A stretch of DNA of 64,000 bases from Bacillota bacterium. GTDB taxonomy: Bacteria > Bacillota > Dethiobacteria > DTU022. A program made the translations under genes and the position numbers. Under the pieces are notes generated by a model. The model saw only the letters and a list, made by a program, of their open reading frames with translations, made no database searches and had not been told where the DNA came from. Position 1 is the first letter of the stretch, and each line of letters opens with the position of its first letter. The stretch is taken from NCBI GenBank assembly GCA_034189085.1, contig JAXHVH010000004.1, positions 21,821 through 85,820 on the forward strand. The letters are read 5' to 3'. Positions 8,301-22,134 of this stretch are shown in pieces.

Positions 8301-9304
8301 GGATTGTCTACCCCCCGGCGGTGGTTATCATCAAGCACTCTGAAAAAAGCTTCTTCCAGATTTGTACGGTTCGGGGTGAATTCTGTTACGACGATTCCTT
8401 TTCTTACCAGGGCAGGGAGCAAATTCCCAGTCATGGCAATCGATTCTCCCGGTTTGGAGATTACCAGGAGTTTGCCCTGCTGTGGGCTTACTTCCCTTAC
8501 GGCGGGATTTTTCCTGATCATGGCGGCTGCTTCGGCCTGCTGGTCAGAACGAACGGCGATCAGGTACTGCTCCATGGTGTAACGGTTGAGCAGTTCACCG
8601 GTGCCGGCATCCAGCAGTTTCCGCCCCCGGTCAATGATGGTTACATGATCACAGACTTTTTCCACATCGGCCAGGATGTGACTGGAAAAGAAGACTGTGG
8701 CCCTGTTTCTGAGCCTGGAAATGATTTCAAGAACCCTGTGGCGGCCTTCGGGGTCGAGAGCGGAGACCGGTTCATCAAGGATCAACAGTTCCGGTTCGGG
8801 CAGAAGGACGGCGGCTATACCGAGGCGTTGCTGCATGCCCCGCGAGTAGGTGCTGACCCGGCGGTTGGCGGCATCGTCAAGCTGGAAATGTTTTAAGAGG
8901 CGATCAATTCGTGTTTGACTCAGGTTTTGGTCTACCCTGTAGATGCTGGCAACCAGCGTAAGCGCTTCTTTCCCGGTCAATCCTTCGGGGAAGACTGGAT
9001 CCTGTGGCAGGTAGGTGGTATAGCGCAGGTAATCCAATTTTTGGCCAAACTTGAGCGGCATGCCGAGAACACTGACTTCACCGGCATCGGCGGCAATCAA
9101 TCCAAGGATAATTTTTATGGTCGTGGTTTTTCCGGCGCCATTGGGCCCGAGGAAGCCGTGGATGCTGCCCCGCCTGACTTTAAAATCTATACCCCTGAGA
9201 GCGGGGTGTTGGCCAAACTGCTTCACCAGCCCGCTGACAAAGATGGCAGTTCCTTTAATCTTATTCCTCTCCCCTGCCGAATACCAGGTAGATAATCGGC
9301 CCAA
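8297..9304 (-). CDS. ABC transporter ATP-binding protein
   Basis: Walker A GPNGAGKTT, signature YSRGMQQR, and Walker B LLILDEP are all present. The called start is TTG and overlaps the upstream PLDc_N gene by 44 nt, so the true start is probably internal and non-ATG. Confidence 0.8.
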   Translation of the reverse strand: MGRLSTWYSAGERNKIKGTAIFVSGLVKQFGQHPALRGIDFKVRRGSIHGFLGPNGAGKTTTIKIILGLIAADAGEVSVLGMPLKFGQKLDYLRYTTYLPQDPVFPEGLTGKEALTLVASIYRVDQNLSQTRIDRLLKHFQLDDAANRRVSTYSRGMQQRLGIAAVLLPEPELLILDEPVSALDPEGRHRVLEIISRLRNRATVFFSSHILADVEKVCDHVTIIDRGRKLLDAGTGELLNRYTMEQYLIAVRSDQQAEAAAMIRKNPAVREVSPQQGKLLVISKPGESIAMTGNLLPALVRKGIVVTEFTPNRTNLEEAFFRVLDDNHRRGVDNP

Positions 9305-9461
9305 AAATATTGATGAAAACGATAATCAGGATCCAGGCCCACCGGGGGAGGCCTTTAACCTCCCTGCGCCTGATCAGGTCAATGATAGCCCAGACCATAA
9401 GCAGGATTTGCAAAACCAGAAAGGGCCAGAAAATCTTCAGTAGATCCAGGACTTCCTGCAA
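9261..9461 (-). CDS. PLDc_N-domain small membrane protein
   Basis: 66 aa. The LPRWAWILIIVFINIFGPIIYLVFGR motif is typical of the PLD-nuclease N-terminal domain, a family often found 5' of ABC transporters. Confidence 0.55.
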   Translation of the reverse strand: MQEVLDLLKIFWPFLVLQILLMVWAIIDLIRRREVKGLPRWAWILIIVFINIFGPIIYLVFGRGEE

Positions 9462-9485
9462 GGTGGATCACCTCCGTTTTGGATG

Positions 9486-10613
9486 TCAGGCGCCGGTTTT
9501 TACTTCATGGTAAGCCCATTCCAGCCACTGCATGGCCAGGGCCAGGTTTTCTTTATCCACTGTTGCACCGCACCAGAATCGGAGCCCGGAGGGGGCATCG
9601 CGATAGGAAGCGATATCGAAGGCTACCTCTTCTGTTCCCAGCAAACCGACCAGATCCTTGAGTTGTTGGGCATCCAGGTCCACGATCAGGCAGACGCTGG
9701 TGTTTGATCTGACAGCTGGATCAGCTGCCAGAAAATTAATCCAGTCATGCGCTTCAACGAAATCTTCAATTACCTGCAGATTTTCTTTGCTTCTCCTGAT
9801 CAGGGCCGGCAGGCCGCCAATTTTTTCAGCCCAGTCCAGGGCATCCAGATAGTCTTCAGTGCAAAGCATGGAAGGGGTATTGATCGTTGATCCTTCAAAT
9901 ATCCCCTTGATCAGCTTTCCTTTTTTGGCCAGACGGAAGATTTTTGGCAGCGGCCAGGTTGGGGTGTAGCTTTCGATTCGCTCAACAGCCCGTGGAGACA
10001 GGGCCAGCATACCGTGAGCTGCTTCACCTCCCAGCACTTTCTGCCAGGAAAATGTAACTACATCGAGTTTTTCCCAGGGTATTTCCATGGCAAAAACCGC
10101 TGAAGTGGCATCACAGAGAACAAGACCTTTCCTATCAGCGGGAATAAAATCGCCTCCGGGTATTTTTACTCCACTTGTAGTTCCGTTCCAGGTCAATACT
10201 ACATCGTGATCGAAGTTAATTTTTTTGAGGTCGGGCAGGAGACCGTAATCAGCGGCAATGACATTTACTTCGGGCAGTTTGAGCTGTTTTTCGATGTCAT
10301 CTGCCCAGGTCTTGCCGAAAGATTCAAAGTAGAGGGCATCGACCGGCTTCGGCCCCAGCAGGCTCCACATAGCCATTTCAAATGCTCCGGTGTCTGAAGC
10401 AGGAACGATACCGAGCAGATAGTCAGCAGGCATTCCCAGGATTGTTTTTGTTCTTTCTATTGCTTTCTTCAGGCGTGTTTTACCTTCCTTGCTGCGGTGG
10501 GAACGGCCTAGAAGATCTTTTTTCAGCGAGGATAGATCATAGCCTGGCCTTTTAGCGCAGGGCCCGGAAGAAAAATTTGGGCAGGTTGGTTTTTGTTGTG
10601 GTTTTAAGGGCAT
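9486..10613 (-). CDS. serC: Phosphoserine aminotransferase
   Basis: The [14 protein letters not shown]-terminal motif is classic SerC. A GGAGG sits 9 nt upstream of the second ATG (10613), so that start is preferred over the ORF-track start at 10637. Confidence 0.8.
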
Positions 10614-10930
10614 GGTTAAGAACCTCCAAAATATCATGATAGTTGCTTCATCAGCAATAATAATATATCAGTAAAGGTTGTTAGTAAAGGGATTGGTAAT
10701 CTCTATTTTTCAGGCTGCTTTATTTGATTCTCCAAAAATGATGATCATATGCTCACTTGAGTGTCCTATTCTCTCAGTTTGTTCTTTGAACCAGCCTGTA
10801 CTTGTTGTTCTGTGGTATAATTATTTTATCTAAATGATAAAGTTTCTCAAAATGAAGGAATCTTTGCTTGCGCTGGATTGACAAAGAGGAAAACACAATC
10901 ATCGTGGCTAAAAAAAGGATGGGATATTCA

Positions 10931-11917
10931 ATGCGCCGGATTGTTTTTCTTTTGCTGCTGTTCATAACTGTTCCATTTGCCATTGGCTGTGATTCGTCTG
11001 ACAATACTCTGGATGAAAAACCATCACTAACTGTGATCACAACAATCTATCCCCTGGCCGATATTACCCGGCAACTTGGCGGTGATCTGGTAAATGTGAT
11101 TTGTTTATTGCCCACAGGGGCAAGTCCCCACACTTACGAACCGACAGTTGATCAGGCCAGGTTGATCAGTGAAGCGCAGATGTTTGTTTTTATTGGTGCA
11201 GGACTGGATGATTGGGGGGCCGACCTGGCGAATGCTGCCGGACCCAAACTGCATCTAATTGATCTCTCCACTTCTGTTACTCTCCTCGAAGAAGGTGTTC
11301 ATTTAATGCCTGCACCGGTCGACGATAAAGAAGCTTCAACCATCAAACAAGGGCTTTCTGATCTACAGGATAAAGAGTCTGATCATGATCACAGGCAAGG
11401 GACAATGAATCCTCATTACTGGCTTGATCCTGTAATAGTTAGCGATCAGATCTGCCCCTTTATTTTTCAGGAACTGGTTTACCTGTTGCCTGATGAAGAA
11501 GCATATTTCAAGGAAAGAATGGACAATTACTGTAATGAACTGGCCCTTTTAGATGAAGAAATAAAAACGAATGTCGCTTCTTTCAGCAGCAGGAAGTTTA
11601 TAGCGTTCCACTCGGCCTGGCAGTATTTTGCCTCTCGCTACAATTTAGAGCAGGCAGCGGTTATTGCCGGTTCTCCGGGCCGGGAACCATCTGCAGGGTG
11701 GATAGCTGATTTGATCGATCTGGTTGAGCGGGAGCAGATTAAAGCTGTTTTTGCCGAACCGCAATTTTCACAGGATCTGGCGGACAGGATTGCTGAAGAG
11801 GGAGGCATAGAAGTACATATCCTCGATCCTCTGGGTGGGGAGAATATACCGGGAAAAGAAACTTACCTGTCGTTGATGAGATACAATCTGGCCGTATTCA
11901 GGGAAGTGCTTGACTGA
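10931..11917 (+). CDS. znuA: Zinc ABC transporter substrate-binding lipoprotein (ZnuA/TroA family)
   Basis: Signal peptide with lipobox (FAIGC). A His-rich loop DHDHRQG is present along with the TroA-like fold. AAAGGATGG lies upstream of the ATG at 10931. Confidence 0.75.
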   Translation: MRRIVFLLLLFITVPFAIGCDSSDNTLDEKPSLTVITTIYPLADITRQLGGDLVNVICLLPTGASPHTYEPTVDQARLISEAQMFVFIGAGLDDWGADLANAAGPKLHLIDLSTSVTLLEEGVHLMPAPVDDKEASTIKQGLSDLQDKESDHDHRQGTMNPHYWLDPVIVSDQICPFIFQELVYLLPDEEAYFKERMDNYCNELALLDEEIKTNVASFSSRKFIAFHSAWQYFASRYNLEQAAVIAGSPGREPSAGWIADLIDLVEREQIKAVFAEPQFSQDLADRIAEEGGIEVHILDPLGGENIPGKETYLSLMRYNLAVFREVLD

Positions 11918-11959
11918 ATCAAGATAAATTGCAGAAGTTAACGGTGGAGGCTCAATGAA

Positions 11960-12724
11960 ATGGGTGAAATTGTTAGAGCGGATAATTTATTCGTCAGACT
12001 GAGCGGTAAAAATGTTTTGAAAGAAATTAATTTTTCAGTTAGAGAAGGAGAATTGATGGGAGTGATCGGCCCGAATGGCGCCGGGAAAACAACCCTGCTG
12101 CGCGTTATTCTTGGTCTGATTCCCATTTCCCAGGGTCGTCTTGAGGTCCTGGGCAGGTTATACCCGCAACTAAAGAAAGTTCGACCGATGATTGGGTACA
12201 TGCCCCAGCGTAGTTCGTATGAAAAGGACATCCCCCTTTCGGTTACCGACGTGGTGTCTACCGGATTATTGACACCTGCTACCATGCTGCACCGCTTAAC
12301 AAAAGGAAATCTCAGGGTTAAAGAAGCTCTGCAGGCTGTGGATATGGAAAGATATGCCAAGCGCTATTTCCAGGAACTTTCCGGAGGTGAACAGCAGCGT
12401 ATCCTGCTGGCCCGATCACTGGTTCGGAAACCGAAGCTTCTTCTGCTTGACGAACCGAATGCCGGCCTTGATTTTCCAGCTCAGCAGAAATTTACTGCCC
12501 TTCTTCAGGAGCTGCGGGAGCGGGACAAACTAACGATCATCCTTATTTCCCACGATTTAATTTCTATTGCATCTGTTGCTGATCAACTCATTGGCATAAA
12601 CTGTGTGATGCACACGCACGGCCGGCCAGGTGATTTATTAAACTGCCCGGGACTGGATGAGGTCTATCGTTGCCAGTTTGATTTACTTAGTGGTATCGGA
12701 AGAGGAAGAAGGGATCAGAAATGA
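11960..12724 (+). CDS. znuC: Zinc ABC transporter ATP-binding protein
   Basis: Walker A GPNGAGKTT, signature LSGGEQQR, Walker B LLLLDEP. Confidence 0.8.
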   Translation: MGEIVRADNLFVRLSGKNVLKEINFSVREGELMGVIGPNGAGKTTLLRVILGLIPISQGRLEVLGRLYPQLKKVRPMIGYMPQRSSYEKDIPLSVTDVVSTGLLTPATMLHRLTKGNLRVKEALQAVDMERYAKRYFQELSGGEQQRILLARSLVRKPKLLLLDEPNAGLDFPAQQKFTALLQELRERDKLTIILISHDLISIASVADQLIGINCVMHTHGRPGDLLNCPGLDEVYRCQFDLLSGIGRGRRDQK

Positions 12725-13560
12725 GCGAAATGCTGAATTACGATTTCATGCAGCGGGCCTTGATTGCGGCTTTCCTGGTGGGGACCCTTTGCTCAGTACT
12801 TTCTTTTTTCGTTGTTCTGAAGCGGCTGTCCTTTCTGGGAGCGGGGATTTCTCACACTGCCCTCGGTGGGATTGCCATCGGGTTAGTTACAGGAATCGAT
12901 CCCGTTCTGACGGGAAGCATTTTCTCCGTGCTGACAGCAATGGGGGTTGGTTATGTCAGCAGGGCAGGTAAAATGAGTGTCGACACTGTGATTGGAATAT
13001 TTTATGCCGCCGGGATGGCCCTGGGCATAGCTTTAATCAGTGCTTTTGAAGGGTACTACCCTGAACTATTTTCCCTCCTTTTTGGTAATATCCTTTCGGT
13101 ATCCTTCCGCGATCTCTTGTTGATGGGGATTATCCTGTTATTGACTCTGGCTTTTATAGTTCTCTTTTTTAAAGAACTTTTGGCAATCTGTTTTGACGAA
13201 GAAATGGCTGAAGCAGGAGGGCTGCCGGTTGGCCCACTTTATATGGTTTTACTGGCGGTGATGGGTTTAACAGTCATAGTTTCAATTCAGCTGGTTGGCA
13301 TTGTTCTGGTGGCTGCTTTAATTGTTATCCCCGGTGCTGCAGCGCTCAGGATAAGCAAAAATTACCGCGGTATGCTGGCTCTTTCACTTTTTTTTGGACT
13401 GGTGGGCAGTATTGGTGGTCTTGTGCTATCGTATTTTTACCCTGTTCCGCCGGGGGCAGCGATTGTGCTTATTCTAACTCTGTTATTTATATTAACCCTG
13501 GTGTTGAATTTTTTCCTGGAGAAAAAACTCCAGAGAAGAGGTTCATTTGAGCAGAGATGA
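12721..13560 (+). CDS. znuB: Zinc/manganese ABC transporter permease
   Basis: 279 aa polytopic membrane protein of ABC-3 family type. Translationally coupled to znuC by an ATGA overlap. Confidence 0.8.
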   Translation: MSEMLNYDFMQRALIAAFLVGTLCSVLSFFVVLKRLSFLGAGISHTALGGIAIGLVTGIDPVLTGSIFSVLTAMGVGYVSRAGKMSVDTVIGIFYAAGMALGIALISAFEGYYPELFSLLFGNILSVSFRDLLLMGIILLLTLAFIVLFFKELLAICFDEEMAEAGGLPVGPLYMVLLAVMGLTVIVSIQLVGIVLVAALIVIPGAAALRISKNYRGMLALSLFFGLVGSIGGLVLSYFYPVPPGAAIVLILTLLFILTLVLNFFLEKKLQRRGSFEQR

Positions 13561-13611
13561 AGGCCTGGCCCGTCTGGACAGGCCAGGTAATAATTAAAGG
13601 AAGGATCGAAA

Positions 13612-14082
13612 ATGGCGGACACTGCCTTTGTGGATAAAGCGAAACAGACTCTGCGAAATGATGGCTACAAGCTAACCGGGCCGCGCCTGGCTATCCTTGA
13701 ATTTATGCTTGAAAGTGAAAGACCTTATAGCATGAAGGAAATCTGCTGTGGGCTGCAGAAGAAATTTTCCGGAATTGGCACTGCCACGGTATACCGCAAC
13801 GTGAATCTTTTTCTCAAGCTGGGGATCTTCCGCACTTCCCCGGTCAATAACAACCAATTTTATTATACAATCAACCGGCCCCGAGATGAGCATCATCATA
13901 TGATTTGTTTACAATGCGGTACCCGGGTTGAGTTCAACGGCTGCAATTTTGATCTCATTGCGAAAGAAATTGAAAAGAATACACATTTTGAGATATACGA
14001 TCATACCCTTGAAGTTTACGGGCTTTGCCCCGGTTGTTTGGCTAAACGAAAAGACTATGCCTGTGATAGAGAGGCAGACTAA
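13612..14082 (+). CDS. zur: Fur-family transcriptional regulator, likely zinc uptake regulator Zur
   Basis: 156 aa with a Fur fold and an HHHMICLQCG...CPGC metal site. It is the last gene of the znu operon. Confidence 0.7.
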   Translation: MADTAFVDKAKQTLRNDGYKLTGPRLAILEFMLESERPYSMKEICCGLQKKFSGIGTATVYRNVNLFLKLGIFRTSPVNNNQFYYTINRPRDEHHHMICLQCGTRVEFNGCNFDLIAKEIEKNTHFEIYDHTLEVYGLCPGCLAKRKDYACDREAD

Positions 14083-14098
14083 ACATGATTGCGCAGCA

Positions 14099-14767
14099 TC
14101 AACTCGGCAGGGTGCGGTTGCAGGTAAGTTTGCCGGCGGCAACCAGCTTTCCCATTCTGGCAAGATGTTTCATACTGTGGGCCATCAGTTGTAGCTTGTG
14201 GCGGGCATGAAAATCGATCAATTTTTTATAGTCAGGATTGGCATTCATAAAATCTTTCCAGCGACGGCAGCAGAAGACCTTTTCAATAAAATTTTCCCGC
14301 AGCCGGGCATCATTGAGCCGGCCTTCATCTTCAACCGGCAGGAGAGGAAAAGACTTCACAAATGATTCAGCGAAGAGGCCGCGGCCGCTTTTGAATCGGT
14401 TCATGGAATTTTGATAAACCTTAATCCTGTAGAGTCCACAGCTGGGCGATTTACTCTTGAAGATGAAGCCGCACAGATCATCTTTTTTAAGTTCATCAAT
14501 TCTTGCTTTGCAAAAACGGATCATGACATCAGTGTGATCGATATTGTTTTTTACAGTTATCATCCTGGGCGCAGCCGGGTCGCCTTTCAGGTCAAGCGCT
14601 TCCCGGGGCATCGGTAGTCCGCATTCCATCTCGGGACAGACATAAACGAAATCGAAAAACTGTCCCAGTATGCCGGTTATGTAAGGATTAAGTTTATGCC
14701 CTCCATCATAGCGAACGCTGTGGCCAAGCAAACACTTGCTGACACCAACCCGTATCTTATCGCTCAC
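14099..14767 (-). CDS. DUF523/DUF1722 family protein (YbgA/TudS-like, putative Fe-S desulfurase-type fold)
   Basis: 222 aa. The N-terminus IRVGVSKCLLGHSVRYDGGHK with conserved Cys is characteristic of DUF523. The C-terminal half resembles DUF1722. Confidence 0.55.
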   Translation of the reverse strand: MSDKIRVGVSKCLLGHSVRYDGGHKLNPYITGILGQFFDFVYVCPEMECGLPMPREALDLKGDPAAPRMITVKNNIDHTDVMIRFCKARIDELKKDDLCGFIFKSKSPSCGLYRIKVYQNSMNRFKSGRGLFAESFVKSFPLLPVEDEGRLNDARLRENFIEKVFCCRRWKDFMNANPDYKKLIDFHARHKLQLMAHSMKHLARMGKLVAAGKLTCNRTLPS

Positions 14768-15097
14768 GTTTTATTCTCCCGGTTTTCTTTTCTCGGATTC
14801 AATTCGCCCGTGGCCTTTCTTAATCCTTTAGCAATAAACGATACTGGAAAATTCTTTTTGAGGTATGGGCAAAGGATGTTACTTGAGGTATATTGAAAGT
14901 AAATATTTTTACTGCATGCAAGAACTGTATTTATTTATAATTCGGGTTGCTTCATCCCCGGAGTAAAAAAATAAATTTGTTTACCATTAAAACAGATGCT
15001 GGACAATAAAGCTAAATTGGCAGGACTGTTTATAGGGAACCGGAAGCGCAGCTTAAGTGTCTAAGTACCTGATTGATTGTAAGCATATGCTGGGGGA

Positions 15098-16033
15098 GTG
15101 GAAAATATGATAGGAAGAAAGGGAAGGTTAATTTTTGCAGTTGCAGTGATTCTGTTGTTTATTACGGCTGGAGGATGTGGTAGTGAAGAAACATCGTTGA
15201 TTGAACAGGAGATCCTATTTGAAGAAGGTATTTTTATCGGGCAGATAGACAGCCAATCCGTAGAGATAGAAATTGACGGGCAGCCCAGGGCTTTTGCTAT
15301 CGGAACAGGAGTCATGGTAACCGATATTGCCGATGGGGCGAAAGTTTCTTTTACCTATGTGGAAGAAGAGCGCCCTGTTATCCTTTCAATTGAAGTGAAG
15401 GGGGATGTTCGGGAGAATGAAGGTATTTATACGGGGCAGATTGACAGCCATTCTGTGGAAATAGAGGTAGATGGTCAATACATGGCTTTCGAATTGGCCG
15501 AAAATCTTAATATTGATGAAATTGCTGATGGATCCAGGGTTGCTTTCAGTTACCGTGAAAGCGACACCAGGCCGGTGTTGCTTTCGATAAAGGTTCTTGA
15601 AGAACCGGGGGATATTGAAAATGGTGAACCAGACAGCGAAGAAACGGGTGAACTGGTCGGCGAAGGAATATTAAGTGGCCAGATCGATGCAAATTCGGTT
15701 GAGATAGAAATTGTCAGGCCTTTTATTCTTGGTGAAGGAGTAGAAATGACTGGTATAGAAGATGGTTCGCTGGTGGCTTTCACTTTTTCTGAAAGTGGAC
15801 AGAGAGCGGTTCTCGATTCGATAGAAGCAGTTGAGGAGCCGGTTGAAGGTGAAGTGATGCATGGGACCCTGATCGGGCAGATCGATAGCCAGTCAGTTGA
15901 AATAAGGTATTTTCGAGCTTTTGCACTTGGTCAGGGAGTAAGTGTCGAAGAAATTGCTGATGGTTCGGAAATAGTTTTTACATATGTTGAAGGGCCCCAC
16001 CGGCCAATTCTCAGTTCAATAAGCCGGCGATAA
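15098..16033 (+). CDS. Lipoprotein composed of four tandem ~75-aa internal repeats (GQID-x-SVEIE motif), function unknown
   Basis: Signal peptide plus lipobox ITAGGC. Four repeats begin G(I/Q)IDSQSVEIEIDGQ...AF...G..V..IADGS.V.F.Y.E..RPV.LSI. Confidence 0.6.
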   Translation: MENMIGRKGRLIFAVAVILLFITAGGCGSEETSLIEQEILFEEGIFIGQIDSQSVEIEIDGQPRAFAIGTGVMVTDIADGAKVSFTYVEEERPVILSIEVKGDVRENEGIYTGQIDSHSVEIEVDGQYMAFELAENLNIDEIADGSRVAFSYRESDTRPVLLSIKVLEEPGDIENGEPDSEETGELVGEGILSGQIDANSVEIEIVRPFILGEGVEMTGIEDGSLVAFTFSESGQRAVLDSIEAVEEPVEGEVMHGTLIGQIDSQSVEIRYFRAFALGQGVSVEEIADGSEIVFTYVEGPHRPILSSISRR

Positions 16034-16220
16034 AATTCCGGTGCAAAGACCTGCAGCCATCTGTTCTCTACTGTGGGCAGATGGCTTTTTTATGGATGCC
16101 TTGTAATTGTTGCCTAGCCTCTTGTTTATTACAGGTAGAACATGTTAATATGTATGGGCGATATGAGAAAAAATGGCGGATGAATTATAGATAAGTACTG
16201 TATCCGAGAGGGGTATTTAG

Positions 16221-17561
16221 ATGATTAAGTGCCAGAACTGCGGCATGAGCTATGATGAAGAAGAATATGGTTTCTGTCCGTACTGCGGGAATGTTCCGAG
16301 AGAGGAACGGGATGGTGAAGAAGAAAGTCTTCCTGTCGAGAAGGAATCGACACCAGCAGAAGTTGCTCCTGGTGAGCCTAAAAAAACGGCAAAAGGAAAG
16401 CTCAAATTTGTTCTTCTCGGTTTGGCCCTGGTTATAGCAGCTGCCGTTCTTGTTTTAGTCTTCTTTCCCTTTGGGGAAGCAGGAGTAACTGTCCCCGGAC
16501 AGTATGCTACCATCCAGGAAGCAATCGATGCAGCACAGGACGGAGATGAAATTGTAGTTCAGGTAGGTATTTACCGGGAGAACATTGATTTCAGGGGAAA
16601 AAATATCATTCTGAAAAGTACCGATCCTGGCAATCCGGAAATTGTTTCTGAAACAATTATCGATGGTGGCGGAAGTGGAACAGTTGTTTCATTCAGAAGC
16701 GGCGAAACCGAAGAAGCAGTTCTCAGCGGATTTACTGTAACCGGGGGCAGCGGAATTTTGGTTTCCGGCGAAAGTTCTCCGCGTATCGAGAAGTGTACAA
16801 TCGAAGATAATAAAGCTGAATACGGGGCTGGAATTGCTGTTTTTGATTCTTCGCCCCATATTTTGAATAACGATATTTTAAACAACTCCGGTTTTTTAGG
16901 CGGAGGAATCTTTATTGAAGAATCGTCACCCCTGGTTGAAGGCAATACCATTACCCGTAATAACGCAGAAATGGGTAGCGGAGTTGTAATTATATCAAAT
17001 TCTTCGCCAACCCTGATTAATAATACAATCAGCAACAACAGGGCTACCCGCCTGGGCGGAGGCCTGGTTGTTGCCCTTGGCTCGACGCCGACGATCAACG
17101 ACAACACAATCAGCGGCAATGCTGCAGAAAGAAACGGCGGCGGTATGCTCATTGAGGAATCGGAACCGGTTATTGAAGACAACATGATCAGTCAGAACAG
17201 GGCTGCAAACGGAGGAGGGATCTTTGTGGTCAACGCCATGGATACAGCTCTCTTAATTACCGGTAATGATATCAACGGAAACCTTGCTTACATCGCCGGT
17301 GGAGGCCTTTACATGGAAGGATCATCGCCTACCCTGGATAGTAATACTTTCAGCGACAACATTTCGGAACATCTGGGAGGCGCAGCGGCCGTTTATAACT
17401 CGGCTCCGGTATTCCTGCGAAATATATTTGAAAACAATCAGGCCGGTGATCCTGACGGAGGCGGGGCAGTTTGGGTCTCGGCAGATTCTGTCCTTGAACT
17501 GAATGACCCTGATGATAATACCTACACAATGAACCTGCCGAATGATCTATCTTTTGAATAG
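16221..17561 (+). CDS. Membrane-anchored right-handed parallel beta-helix repeat protein with N-terminal cytoplasmic zinc ribbon
   Basis: CQNCG...CPYCG zinc ribbon, one TM helix, then about 12 repeats of the NNxISxNxAxxGGGI type (PbH1-like). Confidence 0.6.
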   Translation: MIKCQNCGMSYDEEEYGFCPYCGNVPREERDGEEESLPVEKESTPAEVAPGEPKKTAKGKLKFVLLGLALVIAAAVLVLVFFPFGEAGVTVPGQYATIQEAIDAAQDGDEIVVQVGIYRENIDFRGKNIILKSTDPGNPEIVSETIIDGGGSGTVVSFRSGETEEAVLSGFTVTGGSGILVSGESSPRIEKCTIEDNKAEYGAGIAVFDSSPHILNNDILNNSGFLGGGIFIEESSPLVEGNTITRNNAEMGSGVVIISNSSPTLINNTISNNRATRLGGGLVVALGSTPTINDNTISGNAAERNGGGMLIEESEPVIEDNMISQNRAANGGGIFVVNAMDTALLITGNDINGNLAYIAGGGLYMEGSSPTLDSNTFSDNISEHLGGAAAVYNSAPVFLRNIFENNQAGDPDGGGAVWVSADSVLELNDPDDNTYTMNLPNDLSFE

Positions 17562-17612: not shown

Positions 17613-19343
17613 ATGAGTGAAGAAAAAAGAAAAATTCCCCGCAAGGGTAAAATAATTGGCCTGATAATAGGGGTAATAGTAATTGCGGCAATTGCAGTGT
17701 CTGCTTATCTGTTTTTATCTGATTCCAATTTAGAAGTACCGGGAGATTACCGCACCATTCAGGATGCCATTGAAGCAGCTGAAGACGGGGACATTATTAT
17801 TGTCGAACCTGGTGTTTATTATGAGCAGATCGACTTTATGGGGAAAGATATTACTGTGCGCAGTATCGACCCGGAAGATCCGGCTGTGGTTGCGGAGACG
17901 GTTATCGATGGCCGCAAGAGGGGATCAGTGGTCACTTTTAAAAGTGGTGAAAGTGCGGAAGCTGTTTTACAGGGTTTTACCATTACCAATGGTGTAGGGA
18001 CGGAGCAGGTAGTTTCCCATCAATATGAGGGGAGCGATTTAACTAATGAAGGAACCTACGGCGGGGGTATTTTTATCAGCGAAAGCAGTTCGCCGACCAT
18101 TACTCAGAACGTGATCAAGGATAATGCTGTCGACATGGATGGCGGTGGAATAGCCATATTCTATGGTTCCAATCCAGCAATTAGCAATAATACCTTTGAA
18201 AACAATTCTGCTTCCAACGGAGGAGGTATTTCTGTCTGGGATGCCAGCCCGATCATTGAAAACAACCTGCTGCGGGAAAATAGAGCTTCCAATATGGGTG
18301 GTGGTGTAACAGTAGATTACCAGTCAGCGCCGCGGGTCAGTGGTAATGAGATCGAAGAAAACAGTGCTACCAGCGGCGGAGGCATTGCCGTATGGTATTC
18401 TGAACCTCTGTTGACGGGGAATACTATTTTAGAAAACCATGCCATCTGGTTCGGAGGCGGGATCGTGGTTATGGACGGAACGCCCACTATTGATGGTAAT
18501 GATATATCAAGGAATACAGCCGAAAACAACGGCGGTGGAATTGCTGTAGCTGAAAGCGCTGCACCGGAGATCCGCAATAACAGTATCGCCAAAAATTATA
18601 CCACTGAAAACGGTGGAGGCATTGCCGTAGTCGAGGACAGCACTCCAGTCATCACTGACAACTTTATTGCTGATAACGTGGTGCTATATGGTGGTGGTGG
18701 AATCTATATCAACGAATCTTCTCCGGTAATCGACGGCAACAACATCACCGGAAACCTTGTTGAACAAGACGGCGGTGGAATTGCTGTTTTAAATGGTTCT
18801 TCTCCAACTGTTCAAAACAATATTATCGACGAAAACGTAGCTGGAAGGGCTGGAGGAGGCCTTGCTATAGGCGGGGAATCGGAAGTTGAACTCCAGCAAA
18901 ATACCATTGCCGGTAATGTGGCAAACAGCGGAGGCGGCCTGTTCATTCAGAATGCGGTTGTCCTTGTGGTTGAGAATGATCTTGCCCGGAATATAGCCCA
19001 GGGTGAAGGCGGTTCTGGTGGCGGTATCATAATCGTTCAGCAATCGACTGTTGAAGTGAGGAAAAACACATTTACCGGCAATACCGCCCAGGAATTCGGG
19101 GGAGGCCTGGTGTCTTTTGATGAATCGGTGATAGTTTTATCCGGCAATGATTTTGTTGATAATGTTGCCGAGATGGGTGGCGCTTATATAGTATTTGGTG
19201 ACTCAGTCCTGGAGATTAGTGAACCGGATGACAATACCTACAGCGGTAATGTGCCGGAAGATACCGAAGGCGGAGCCAAAGAAAGAACGCCGGAAGAGCC
19301 TGAGGGCGAACCAGTAGAAGATCTAGAGGGAAGTGGAGAGTAG
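17613..19343 (+). CDS. Membrane-anchored parallel beta-helix repeat protein (paralog of upstream gene) with acidic C-terminal tail
   Basis: A basic N-terminus precedes one TM helix. The segment PGDYRTIQDAIEAAEDGD...GESAEAVLQGFTITNG parallels the upstream protein, followed by more than 15 beta-helix repeats. The tail is EEPEGEPVEDLEGSGE. Confidence 0.6.
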   Translation: MSEEKRKIPRKGKIIGLIIGVIVIAAIAVSAYLFLSDSNLEVPGDYRTIQDAIEAAEDGDIIIVEPGVYYEQIDFMGKDITVRSIDPEDPAVVAETVIDGRKRGSVVTFKSGESAEAVLQGFTITNGVGTEQVVSHQYEGSDLTNEGTYGGGIFISESSSPTITQNVIKDNAVDMDGGGIAIFYGSNPAISNNTFENNSASNGGGISVWDASPIIENNLLRENRASNMGGGVTVDYQSAPRVSGNEIEENSATSGGGIAVWYSEPLLTGNTILENHAIWFGGGIVVMDGTPTIDGNDISRNTAENNGGGIAVAESAAPEIRNNSIAKNYTTENGGGIAVVEDSTPVITDNFIADNVVLYGGGGIYINESSPVIDGNNITGNLVEQDGGGIAVLNGSSPTVQNNIIDENVAGRAGGGLAIGGESEVELQQNTIAGNVANSGGGLFIQNAVVLVVENDLARNIAQGEGGSGGGIIIVQQSTVEVRKNTFTGNTAQEFGGGLVSFDESVIVLSGNDFVDNVAEMGGAYIVFGDSVLEISEPDDNTYSGNVPEDTEGGAKERTPEEPEGEPVEDLEGSGE

Positions 19344-19608: not shown

Positions 19609-20076
19609 GTGTCGGTTTTGACTGAATTGAGGCCTGTTACTTCTTCACTTCAGGATTACCTGGAGGTTATCCTCAACCTCAGCGAAGAAAAAAAAGTTGT
19701 AAGGGTAACAGACATAGCTGATCGGCTGGATATTGCCAAACCCAGTGTTATTCAAGCTCTTGCCCTGCTGAAAGAAAAAGGTTTGATCCGGCAAAACAGA
19801 TATGGGCCTGTGGAATTGACTGAAGAAGGGTACCGCTGTGCCGAAAAGGTATGGCACCGGCATAATGTCCTTTTCGGTTTCTTGACCCAGATTCTTGGAG
19901 TATCACCGCAGGCAGCAGAAGAAGATGCCTGCCTGATAGAACATGATTTGAGCAGTGAAACTTTTGAAAAATTAATATCATTTTTAAAAGAGCAAAAAAT
20001 TGAGGCCCATTATCAAAAAAGAAAACGTTGTGACTTGAAGGCCCAGGGGCCGGGAAATGGAGGTAGAAAAAAATGA
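19609..20076 (+). CDS. DtxR-family metal (iron)-dependent transcriptional repressor
   Basis: N-terminal HTH LQDYLEVI...VRVTDIADRLDIAKPSV, then a dimerisation domain; there is no SH3 domain. GTG start. It is followed by feoA/feoB. Confidence 0.7.
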   Translation: MSVLTELRPVTSSLQDYLEVILNLSEEKKVVRVTDIADRLDIAKPSVIQALALLKEKGLIRQNRYGPVELTEEGYRCAEKVWHRHNVLFGFLTQILGVSPQAAEEDACLIEHDLSSETFEKLISFLKEQKIEAHYQKRKRCDLKAQGPGNGGRKK

Positions 20077-20330
20077 AGTTGTCACTGGTAGATATGAAAC
20101 CCGGGCAGAATGGGGTTATTGAAAAAATTATGGGTGGTCCAGGTTTCGCCGCTAAACTCGGGCAAATCGGGTTGTACAGGGGCAAAAAGATTAAAAAATT
20201 GAGTTCGATTTTCAGACGAGGGCCTGTAACGGTTAGCATTGATAATTTCCAGGTGGCTATTGGTTACGGCAAGGCTATGCGTATCATGGTGGAGGTGGAC
20301 GACGGTGAAGAAAATAGTGCTGGTTGGTAA
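20073..20330 (+). CDS. feoA: Ferrous iron transport protein A
   Basis: 85 aa FeoA/SH3-like (MKPGQNGVIEKI...). Overlaps the dtxR stop by 4 nt. Confidence 0.8.
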   Translation: MKLSLVDMKPGQNGVIEKIMGGPGFAAKLGQIGLYRGKKIKKLSSIFRRGPVTVSIDNFQVAIGYGKAMRIMVEVDDGEENSAGW

Positions 20331-22134
20331 TCCCAATGTGGGGAAAAGCGTTGTATTCTCTCAGCTCACCGGATCGAAGGTGATGATATCCAATTATTCT
20401 GGGACAACCGTCGAATTCACCGGGGGACAACTAACGATCGGTGAAGATTCTTATGCAGTGATGGATGCCCCTGGCACTTACAGCCTCACGCCTTCTTCAA
20501 AAGTAGAAGAAGTGGCAGCAGACATGGTAGATCAGGCTGATGTGGTAATCAATGTTGTTGATGCGACCAATCTTGAGCGTAATCTGCTCCTTACATCAGA
20601 AGTGCTGGAACGTGATGTCCCGGTTATCATTGCTTTAAATATGATCGATGAGGCGGGGCACAAGGGTGTTAAAATTGACGTGGAAAAACTTGAAGAGCTC
20701 CTTGGCGTTCCCGTTATACCTACAGTTGCGGTCAGCGGGGAGGGTTTGAAGAAACTGGTCGATGCTCTTCCGAAGGCAATTAATCGAAAAAAAAAACCTC
20801 TTGAAGTTGCTGACCGCTGGGCTTATGTAGGCAGTGTGGTGGGCGAAGTACAAACCATTATTCACAGGCACCATACCTGGCTTGAATCGCTGCAGGATGA
20901 CAGTCTGAGGCCATTGACCGGTATTCCCATAGTTGCGATTGTCCTCTATTTGGCTTTTCAGCTGGTGATCGGCGTGGGAGAAGTGATCGCCGCTTTTCTG
21001 GAAGAATACTTTTTCGGCGGTTTTTACGGCCTGCTGATGAACCGGCTGAGTGAATGGCTCGGAAGCGGTGGTTTTCTCCACGACATATTAATCGGCAGGC
21101 TTTTTGATGGTGCTATACAATTTGAAGAGTCTCTGGGGGTTCTTACTACCGGGGTATTTGTTGAATTTGGTATTGTTTTACCGTTTTTAACCGTTTTTTA
21201 CCTGGTGCTCGGTTTTTTGGAAGATTCCGGTTATCTTCCCCGCCTGGCGGTGATGGCCGACCGGGTCATGCACCGGGTTGGTCTGCATGGTTATTCCATT
21301 ATTCCCATGGTCCTGGGATTTGGTTGCAATGTCCCGGCTGTTCTGGCAGCACGCAACCTGGAAAGCCGGCGTGAAAGATTTATTGTTTGCACCCTTACGT
21401 CTGTAGCTGTACCCTGCATGGCCCAGCTGGCTATGATCGTAGGGTTGGTCGGAAGATTCGGTGGTGCCTACCTTGCTGTTGTTTTTGCCAGCCTGTTTTT
21501 TATCTGGATTGTGCTTGGCCTGATTATTGACCGTTTTATGCCCGGCTATACACCTTCCATGGTTGTTGAGATACCGCCGTACCGTATCCCAAGCCTGCGG
21601 GCCCAGTTCAAAAAACTGGGCATGAGAGTAAAGGGACTGATTGTTCATGCTACACCCTATATACTCGGGGGGATCCTGCTGGTCAATATTCTATACACAT
21701 CAGGTATCGTTGATTACCTGGGTATAATATTCAAACCGGTAATTCAGGGGGTCCTCGGGTTGCCCGGTGAAGCTGTTTCAACCCTGTTGATCGGTTTTCT
21801 ACGCAAGGATGTTGCTGTAGCCATGCTTGTCCCACTCGGGTTAAATGCCCGCCAGTTTGTGATCGGTGCGGTCGTTCTGGCTGCTTATTTCCCCTGTGCC
21901 GCTACTTTTGCTGTTCTGCTCAGGGAGCTGGGGCTGCGCGATATGTTCAAGTCGGCGATAATAATGGTACTTACCTCTTTTTCCGCTGGATTCATGCTCA
22001 ATATGCTTCTTGATACAGTTGTCCCTGCACCTTACATGGCTGCCGGCCTGGTTGTAGCAGCGATAATCCTGGCCTTCGTTGTTGGCAGCACTTCGGATCG
22101 CCGTGAACTCGAGGATCTGGATAAAGCAGTCTGA
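20305..22134 (+). CDS. feoB: Ferrous iron transport protein B
   Basis: G-domain IVLVGNPNVGKS plus polytopic Gate domains. GGAGGTGGA sits upstream of the GTG at 20305, so this start is preferred over the ORF-track start at 20239. Confidence 0.85.
   Translation: MKKIVLVGNPNVGKSVVFSQLTGSKVMISNYSGTTVEFTGGQLTIGEDSYAVMDAPGTYSLTPSSKVEEVAADMVDQADVVINVVDATNLERNLLLTSEVLERDVPVIIALNMIDEAGHKGVKIDVEKLEELLGVPVIPTVAVSGEGLKKLVDALPKAINRKKKPLEVADRWAYVGSVVGEVQTIIHRHHTWLESLQDDSLRPLTGIPIVAIVLYLAFQLVIGVGEVIAAFLEEYFFGGFYGLLMNRLSEWLGSGGFLHDILIGRLFDGAIQFEESLGVLTTGVFVEFGIVLPFLTVFYLVLGFLEDSGYLPRLAVMADRVMHRVGLHGYSIIPMVLGFGCNVPAVLAARNLESRRERFIVCTLTSVAVPCMAQLAMIVGLVGRFGGAYLAVVFASLFFIWIVLGLIIDRFMPGYTPSMVVEIPPYRIPSLRAQFKKLGMRVKGLIVHATPYILGGILLVNILYTSGIVDYLGIIFKPVIQGVLGLPGEAVSTLLIGFLRKDVAVAMLVPLGLNARQFVIGAVVLAAYFPCAATFAVLLRELGLRDMFKSAIIMVLTSFSAGFMLNMLLDTVVPAPYMAAGLVVAAIILAFVVGSTSDRRELEDLDKAV

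Follow-up and report, generated by a model that had tools for sequence, protein, structure and literature searches.

A four-domain OB_LytA lipoprotein encoded upstream of two beta-helix membrane proteins in a Bacillota genome

The window analysed here is a stretch of 64,000 nucleotides from a Bacillota bacterium (GTDB lineage Dethiobacteria; DTU022), positions 21,821 to 85,820 of the forward strand of contig JAXHVH010000004.1 in the NCBI GenBank assembly GCA_034189085.1. All coordinates refer to this window unless another contig is named. The gene under study lies within the open reading frame (ORF) 15098-16033 on the plus strand, which was confirmed in the ORF list and whose mechanically assigned start is GTG 15098. 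Because a Shine-Dalgarno-like element overlaps this GTG and the corresponding NCBI protein (P0001) has a length of 308 aa, ATG 15107 is favoured as the start codon, and the coding sequence most likely spans 15107-16033. P0001, deposited as 'MAG: hypothetical protein SVV67_02235 [Bacillota bacterium]' (MAG, metagenome-assembled genome), is identical to the window protein. The gene is a genuine feature and encodes a four-copy member of the known OB_LytA family. The protein is already public as 'hypothetical' and is in places mislabelled as CusF. Its features are as follows, with the four repeats designated R1 to R4 and the scores of the hidden Markov model (HMM) of the repeat unit given for each.

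15092-15098, plus strand: Shine-Dalgarno-like GGGGGAG, 8 nt 5' of ATG 15107, read from the sequence
15107-16033, plus strand: coding sequence, 308 aa and a stop codon, for the OB_LytA lipoprotein with four domains; 100% match to P0001
15107-15178, plus strand: predicted signal peptide with a lipobox (MIGRKGRLIFAVAVILLFITAGG directly before C), fitting a PROSITE-type lipobox pattern
15176-15178, plus strand: codon of Cys24, the lipobox cysteine
15221-15412, plus strand: R1, OB_LytA, five strands; HMM 95.4 bits; lipo_LytA E = 5.5e-6; strands at 36-97 in the structure model
15416-15613, plus strand: R2, OB_LytA, five strands; HMM 101.8 bits; lipo_LytA E = 3.9e-8; CusF_Ec 18.8 bits
15614-15658, plus strand: flexible acidic linker (IENGEPDSEETGELV) joining the R1-R2 pair to the R3-R4 pair; pLDDT below 50 at residues 171-178
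15659-15850, plus strand: R3, OB_LytA, with a beta2-beta3 turn shorter by 3 aa and RAV in place of RPV; HMM 87.9 bits
15851-16030, plus strand: R4, OB_LytA, with a turn shorter by 3 aa and an invariant Tyr after SVEI; HMM 92.5 bits

The signal peptide ends in ITAGG immediately before the cysteine (...FITAGG/C). The PROSITE-type lipobox pattern {DERK}(6)-[LIVMFWSTAG](2)-[LIVMFYSTAGCQ]-[AGS]-C fits the window protein and 52 of the 60 homologues; the cysteine column is kept in 57 of the 60, and the G-C pair is more than 90% conserved across them. In the AlphaFold2 model, a helix is located at residues 7-19, within the signal peptide, and lgt genes can be found near several of the orthologous loci. 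The window protein is a bacterial lipoprotein, in agreement with the initial annotation, which was made from the sequence alone; the predicted lipidation of the cysteine would place it on the outer face of the cytoplasmic membrane. The mature protein is very acidic (pI about 4.05, 15% Glu) and contains no Trp and one Cys.

The GQID motif occurs four times, at aa 48, 113, 194, and 260 (GTG-start numbering), with a start-to-start spacing of 195, 243, and 198 nt. The HMM of the repeat unit detects exactly four domains in the ORF and no others when the whole window is translated in six frames. Pairwise Smith-Waterman scores among the repeats are 121-163, with shuffle means of about 24 (z = 18-31). 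At the DNA level, no tandem repeat was found in the gene by Tandem Repeats Finder, the copies being too divergent. When the repeats of 18 homologues were compared, every repeat was closest to its positional counterpart in another protein (72 of 72), and identities between repeats of different positions were the same within a protein as between proteins. Therefore, the four-fold duplication is older than the family and has proceeded without concerted evolution, which bears out the proposal of the initial annotation that there are four anciently duplicated repeats. Some of its details require correction. The repeats recur every 65, 81, and 66 aa rather than about 75; the core measures about 60 aa, and the period of 81 includes a 15-aa acidic linker. 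Instead of the DNA identity of about 70% given there, whole repeats are 54-62% identical in codon-aligned DNA and 47-61% identical in amino acids; only the 33-nt GQIDSxSVEI core reaches 64-82%. The same order of motifs had been ascribed to each copy, and this holds for GQID, which is present in all four. DGQ is confined to R1 and R2, because a 3-aa deletion has removed it from R3 and R4, and R3 has PF instead of AF and RAV instead of RPV.

Several positions within the repeats are invariant in the 60 homologues, namely R204 and F206 of R3 and Y268 of R4, and each repeat holds one invariant Asp and one invariant Glu. The length and sequence of the acidic linker between R2 and R3 differ among the homologues.

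Precomputed Pfam matches on P0001 comprise PF27162 (OB_LytA; PF27162.1) and PF11604 (CusF_Ec). The former is also precomputed on essentially all of the 120 listed homologues, with matches at E <= 1e-5 in several contigs, whereas the matches of the latter on homologues are faint. The NCBIfam model lipo_LytA (NF058647, 'acidic lipoprotein LytA') matches the whole protein with E = 7e-18 and 64.8 bits; individually, it is matched by R1 and R2, and R3 and R4 are below its reach. The protein is not an equivalog of LytA, since its score lies below the cutoff of 110 bits, it has four domains, and it lacks the lytABC context. When a profile of 72 repeat units was aligned with LytA of Bacillus (P0268) using hhalign, the whole module was covered with a probability of 94.8% and E = 5e-8. 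A B. subtilis LytA sequence used as a query returned 'membrane-bound protein LytA' entries with 95% identity, all of which carry PF27162. Given the PF27162 matches and the LytA alignment, the repeat belongs to an existing Pfam family. The initial annotation recognised no domain and considered that the repeat might be new, which these matches contradict. It had suggested a search with an HMM of the four repeats, in which a match to an existing family of known function would speak against novelty; as regards an existing Pfam family, such a match was found. No publication on OB_LytA or PF27162 was found in the literature search. In Pfam and NCBIfam scans, the window protein matched no enzyme family, and it contains no catalytic motifs.

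The AlphaFold2 model, built from a 60-sequence alignment, has a mean pLDDT of 85 and a pTM of 0.61 and consists of four all-beta domains with one disordered segment, residues 171-178, between R2 and R3. Foldseek against the PDB matched the model to tandem OB-fold arrays (Unr cold-shock domains, LEF-3, Mpa, HIN) and the single domain to CusF (1zeq, 2qcp, 2vb2; target TM-score 0.68-0.72, root-mean-square deviation 2.3-3.4 Å, 21% identity). The closest structures are CusF, SilF, and SilB. Among PDB sequences, the profile searches found no relatives other than CusF, SilF, and a copper-binding protein (E about 0.007), and phmmer with the whole protein against PDB sequences returned only noise, such as BamE signal peptides. 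Each repeat is an OB-fold barrel and a distant relative of CusF, which is a periplasmic Cu/Ag chaperone. Accordingly, the small beta-rich binding domain envisaged in the initial annotation is consistent with the all-beta, binding-type OB fold suggested by structure prediction. The G-x-I-D-x-x-S hairpin is common to the repeats and CusF (GIDLES); therefore, the GQIDSxSVEIE core mainly represents a structural signature of this OB subfamily. Taken together, the protein is an extracytoplasmic, very acidic (pI about 4) string of four OB barrels with a predicted lipid anchor, arranged in two pairs, R1-R2 and R3-R4, which are separated by a flexible acidic linker.

The relationship with CusF does not extend to its metal site. 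Cu(I) in CusF is bound by His36, Met47, and Met49, and Trp44 caps the site (PMC9302797). In the alignment of the repeat profile with CusF, His36 and Trp44 fall inside a 10-residue insertion of CusF ('hdpiaavnwp') that is absent from the repeats, while the counterparts of Met47 and Met49 are variable Q/E and R/K positions in the DGQ-x-R turn, which is 3 residues shorter still in R3 and R4. No conserved His, Met, Cys, or Trp was found at the CusF ligand positions in the 60 homologues; the His and Met residues that are partly conserved are confined to the linker between R3 and R4 and to two isolated positions. As judged from these alignments, the repeats have lost a CusF-type metal site. The CusF_Ec model scores 37.5 bits on the whole protein (cutoff 27), and this value adds up incomplete matches that cover the model's C-terminal half. 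For single repeats, the best score is 18.8 bits (R2), which is below the cutoff and also covers only the C-terminal half, and R1 and R4 give no match. Several four-repeat orthologues (P0007, P0010, P0045, P0097, P0099, and P0100) are labelled 'Cu/Ag efflux protein CusF' by the Joint Genome Institute (JGI). Since the metal site is missing, this label is probably an over-annotation.

A search with the single-repeat profile among 1.84 billion representatives revealed only 466 proteins at E <= 1e-3, of which 100 reach E <= 1e-10. P0170 (4917 aa) and P0248, partial matches to other repeat proteins, were disregarded. The number of tandem copies in OB_LytA proteins ranges from one to five, two being the most frequent. 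The top scores belong to proteins with four copies (about 300-327 aa), and those with a single copy (about 100-130 aa) are similar to LytA. Most of the sampled members begin with a lipoprotein-type or other signal sequence. Full-length four-copy orthologues (42-80% identity) are found in about 40 MAGs among the GTDB species representatives, labelled Syntrophomonadaceae or Bacillota; judging from their titles, many are from soda-lake sediment. Weaker matches come from Dethiobacter, Paenibacillus, Cohnella, and Tepidibacillus. Fusions with two OB_LytA copies can also be noted: six proteins of other Bacillota (P0147, P0152, P0161, P0175, P0194, and P0229) carry PrcB_C, a domain named after a protease-complex lipoprotein, and P0183 carries Cu_amine_oxidN1, a copper amine oxidase N-terminal-like domain. 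These fusions, in which OB_LytA is C-terminal, point to a modular extracytoplasmic role. At two further loci in related MAGs (L042, 1926-5166, and L045, 5893-8659), distant two- to four-copy OB_LytA paralogues are located directly 5' of a gene for a putative extracytoplasmic function (ECF) sigma factor and of a 447-aa gene that could encode an anti-sigma factor, both judged by eye from the sequences.

The gene order in the window is znuA, znuC, znuB, a fur-family gene, a DUF523-family gene on the minus strand, the lipoprotein gene, two beta-helix genes (BH1 and BH2), a dtxR-like gene, and feoB. The features downstream of the lipoprotein gene are as follows; TM stands for transmembrane.

16055-16092, plus strand: intrinsic-terminator-like hairpin with a 12-bp stem and a T-run, 3' of the lipoprotein gene
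16221-17561, plus strand: BH1, 446 aa, zinc ribbon, TM helix, and extracytoplasmic parallel beta-helix; Pfam Beta_helix 1.3e-40
17613-19343, plus strand: BH2, 576 aa, TM helix and parallel beta-helix with an acidic tail; Pfam Beta_helix 1e-39

The initial annotation had advised checking co-occurrence with beta-helix proteins, and this was observed: wherever an orthologous locus extends far enough downstream, the lipoprotein gene is followed by BH1 and BH2, and the adjacency of BH2 to BH1 is conserved. Next to the most distant BH1 orthologue (54% identity), the OB_LytA gene is still found upstream. The znu/fur block, the fakA-like, DUF2207, and 237-aa genes, and the genes further downstream vary among the orthologous loci.

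The N-terminus of BH1 (16221-16295) contains a CxxC...CxxC zinc ribbon (MIKCQNCG...FCPYCGN) ahead of the TM helix, which would be a cytoplasmic tail on an extracytoplasmic beta-helix protein. Sequence searches with BH1 and BH2 against the PDB revealed no informative relative. Both proteins match the Pfam NosD family. Assignment to the NosD subfamily (TIGR04247) was considered and rejected, as the scores are 55.7 and 81.4 bits against a cutoff of 300, and no NosF, NosY, NosZ, or NosL genes are present in the neighbourhood of the lipoprotein gene. In one contig (L087, JAXDEL010638166.1), several zinc-ribbon/TM beta-helix paralogues are interleaved with ankyrin-repeat proteins, and no OB_LytA gene is present; this contig comes from the same assembly (GCA_036681025.1) as the orthologous loci L005 and L089.

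The trio is bordered on either side by metal-homeostasis genes, at 10868-14082 (znuA, znuC, znuB, and the fur-family gene) and at 19609-22134 (a DtxR/MntR-like repressor gene and feoB). In relatives, the flanks of the trio hold arginase, ArsR with an ArsP permease, lgt, and msrB instead. Membership of the lipoprotein gene in a zinc regulon was also considered and rejected; the upstream regions of znuA and of the lipoprotein gene share no Fur/Zur-like palindrome, and the znu/fur flank is absent in several relatives.

Two other observations concern the neighbourhood. The DUF523-family ORF (14099-14767, minus strand) encodes 222 aa and keeps only the first 23 or so residues of DUF1722. Its relatives are 316-334 aa in length, and in them a FakA-like gene is located between the fur-family gene (13612-14082, plus strand, in the window) and the DUF523-family gene. 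As far as the positions of tblastn matches show, the short arrangement appears to be shared by L007 and L008, the two closest relatives, which suggests a lineage-specific deletion. In L004, a 237-aa gene with no Pfam match (9120-9833) lies between the lipoprotein gene and BH1. This locus is on the same contig as L024, and a gap of about 1.0-1.2 kb exists at the corresponding position in L018, L022, L024, L027, L029, and L032.

The interpretation that we favour, and hold as a tentative one, is that the lipoprotein may be a non-enzymatic adaptor for which BH1 and BH2 are the most likely partners. It would act as a membrane-anchored adaptor or scaffold, with the faces of its OB barrels binding a partner, either protein or glycan, in the wall zone. 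The likeliest candidates are the membrane-anchored beta-helix proteins encoded directly downstream. In favour of this are the constant presence of BH1 and BH2 after the lipoprotein gene amid varying flanks, the fusions of OB_LytA to PrcB_C and Cu_amine_oxidN1, and the lytA-lytB-lytC cluster, which shows the same order, a lipoprotein gene followed by genes for two large exoproteins. LytA is a suspected adaptor in lytABC.

A number of considerations weigh against this interpretation. To our knowledge, neither LytA nor any OB_LytA domain has a function defined by experiment. The adjacency of OB_LytA and beta-helix genes is limited to one clade and is therefore inseparable from inherited synteny, the more so as the upstream DUF523-family gene, which encodes an unrelated 2-thiouracil desulfurase-type protein, is also syntenic in most loci. 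Zinc-ribbon beta-helix paralogues with 37-44% identity have no OB_LytA neighbour and lend no support to an independent origin of the link outside the clade, and distant OB_LytA paralogues have no beta-helix neighbour. Given the terminator-like hairpin in the window and comparable hairpins, at least as strong as -14 kcal/mol and no more than 85 nt from the stop codon, in 8 of 22 orthologous loci checked, co-transcription of the lipoprotein gene with BH1 and BH2 is not obligatory. In the publications consulted, LytA is called only 'the lipoprotein' of the LytABC complex and is listed under cell wall; no mechanism was found there for it or for YqiH.

In a broader version of the adaptor interpretation, large surface enzymes would generally have membrane-tethered partner subunits of the OB_LytA class. 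One design may then underlie LytA-LytB-LytC, YqiH-YqiI, the fusions with PrcB_C, and OB4-BH1-BH2, and OB4-BH1-BH2 would be a tripartite surface machine of soda-lake Bacillota not described before. We regard this generalisation as speculative and, on balance, unlikely. Rather than a new domain, the repeat is part of a recently curated family, and the value of the present analysis lies mainly in annotation. The strictly conserved trio of a lipoprotein and two beta-helix proteins gives a concrete partner hypothesis for OB_LytA, whose founder LytA has no defined role in the publications consulted. If true, it would help to explain what small acidic lipoproteins do in Gram-positive envelopes.

Instead of acting as an adaptor, the protein could be a polyanionic component of the envelope that has no specific partner and whose acidic barrels mainly buffer cations or protons (Na+, Mg2+, Ca2+, H+) with low affinity at the membrane surface in a haloalkaliphile. 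This agrees with a mature pI of 4.05-4.28 in all 60 homologues, with 17-24% Asp and Glu in the 15 homologues tabulated, with the invariant Asp and Glu of each repeat, and with the occurrence of full-length orthologues almost only in MAGs from soda lakes and alkaline sediments, as judged from titles. However, acidity is a property of the whole family, including LytA of neutrophilic Bacillus, and is therefore not an adaptation specific to alkaliphiles. The conserved Asp is also found in CusF (GID..S) and is probably structural, and the position-specific conservation of the four distinct repeats, together with that of the linker between R3 and R4, speaks for a specific structure more than for bulk charge. 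We find this explanation improbable.

A role in binding glycans or wall polymers appears similarly doubtful. According to this explanation, the OB barrels would bind a polysaccharide of the cell wall or a secreted one and hold or present it near the membrane, possibly as a substrate for the beta-helix neighbours, which are of the CASH type. However, no conserved aromatic platform is present; the protein lacks Trp, and its conserved Phe and Tyr residues alternate in the manner of core strand residues. In addition, a protein with a pI of 4 binds anionic wall polymers poorly, and no carbohydrate-binding family of Pfam or NCBIfam was matched.

A CusF-type metal chaperone delivering Cu/Ag, or Zn/Fe/Mn, to a transporter or to the NosD-like beta-helix proteins is very unlikely: the whole-protein CusF_Ec score, the CusF, SilF, and SilB structures, the metal-homeostasis genes of the window, and the NosD matches of BH1 and BH2 can be cited in its favour, but the CusF loop and ligands are absent and the repeats contain no conserved His, Met, or Cys, no single repeat reaches the CusF_Ec cutoff, the scores of BH1 and BH2 are far below the NosD cutoff, the znu/fur and dtxR/feoB flanks are not kept in relatives, no Fur/Zur-like palindrome is common to the upstream regions of znuA and of the lipoprotein gene, and no resistance-nodulation-division (RND), membrane fusion protein (MFP), or outer membrane factor (OMF) genes of a CusCBA-type efflux system were found in six orthologous loci or near the window gene.

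Among known systems, the window protein finds its closest counterpart in LytA of the Bacillus subtilis group, which is likewise an acidic lipoprotein with an OB_LytA domain whose gene is followed by two genes for large extracytoplasmic proteins. The two differ in size, as LytA has one domain and about 100 aa, while the window protein has four domains and 308 aa. They also differ in their neighbours, which in Bacillus are LytB (CW_binding_2 and SpoIID) and LytC (CW_binding_2 and Amidase_3), and in the window are beta-helix membrane proteins. CusF of E. coli, to which SilF and the C-terminal domain of SilB are related, carries the 10-residue loop with His36 and Trp44 that is absent from the repeats of the window protein. 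Moreover, CusF is soluble, resides in the periplasm, and is encoded in the CusCBA context, whereas the window protein is a Bacillota lipoprotein with four tandem copies. Other OB_LytA architectures of Bacillota resemble the window protein in having one to five tandem copies and, mostly, signal sequences; the four-copy form with position-specific repeats, accompanied by BH1 and BH2, occurs only in a single clade of MAGs from soda lakes, which carry the label 'Syntrophomonadaceae' or Bacillota.
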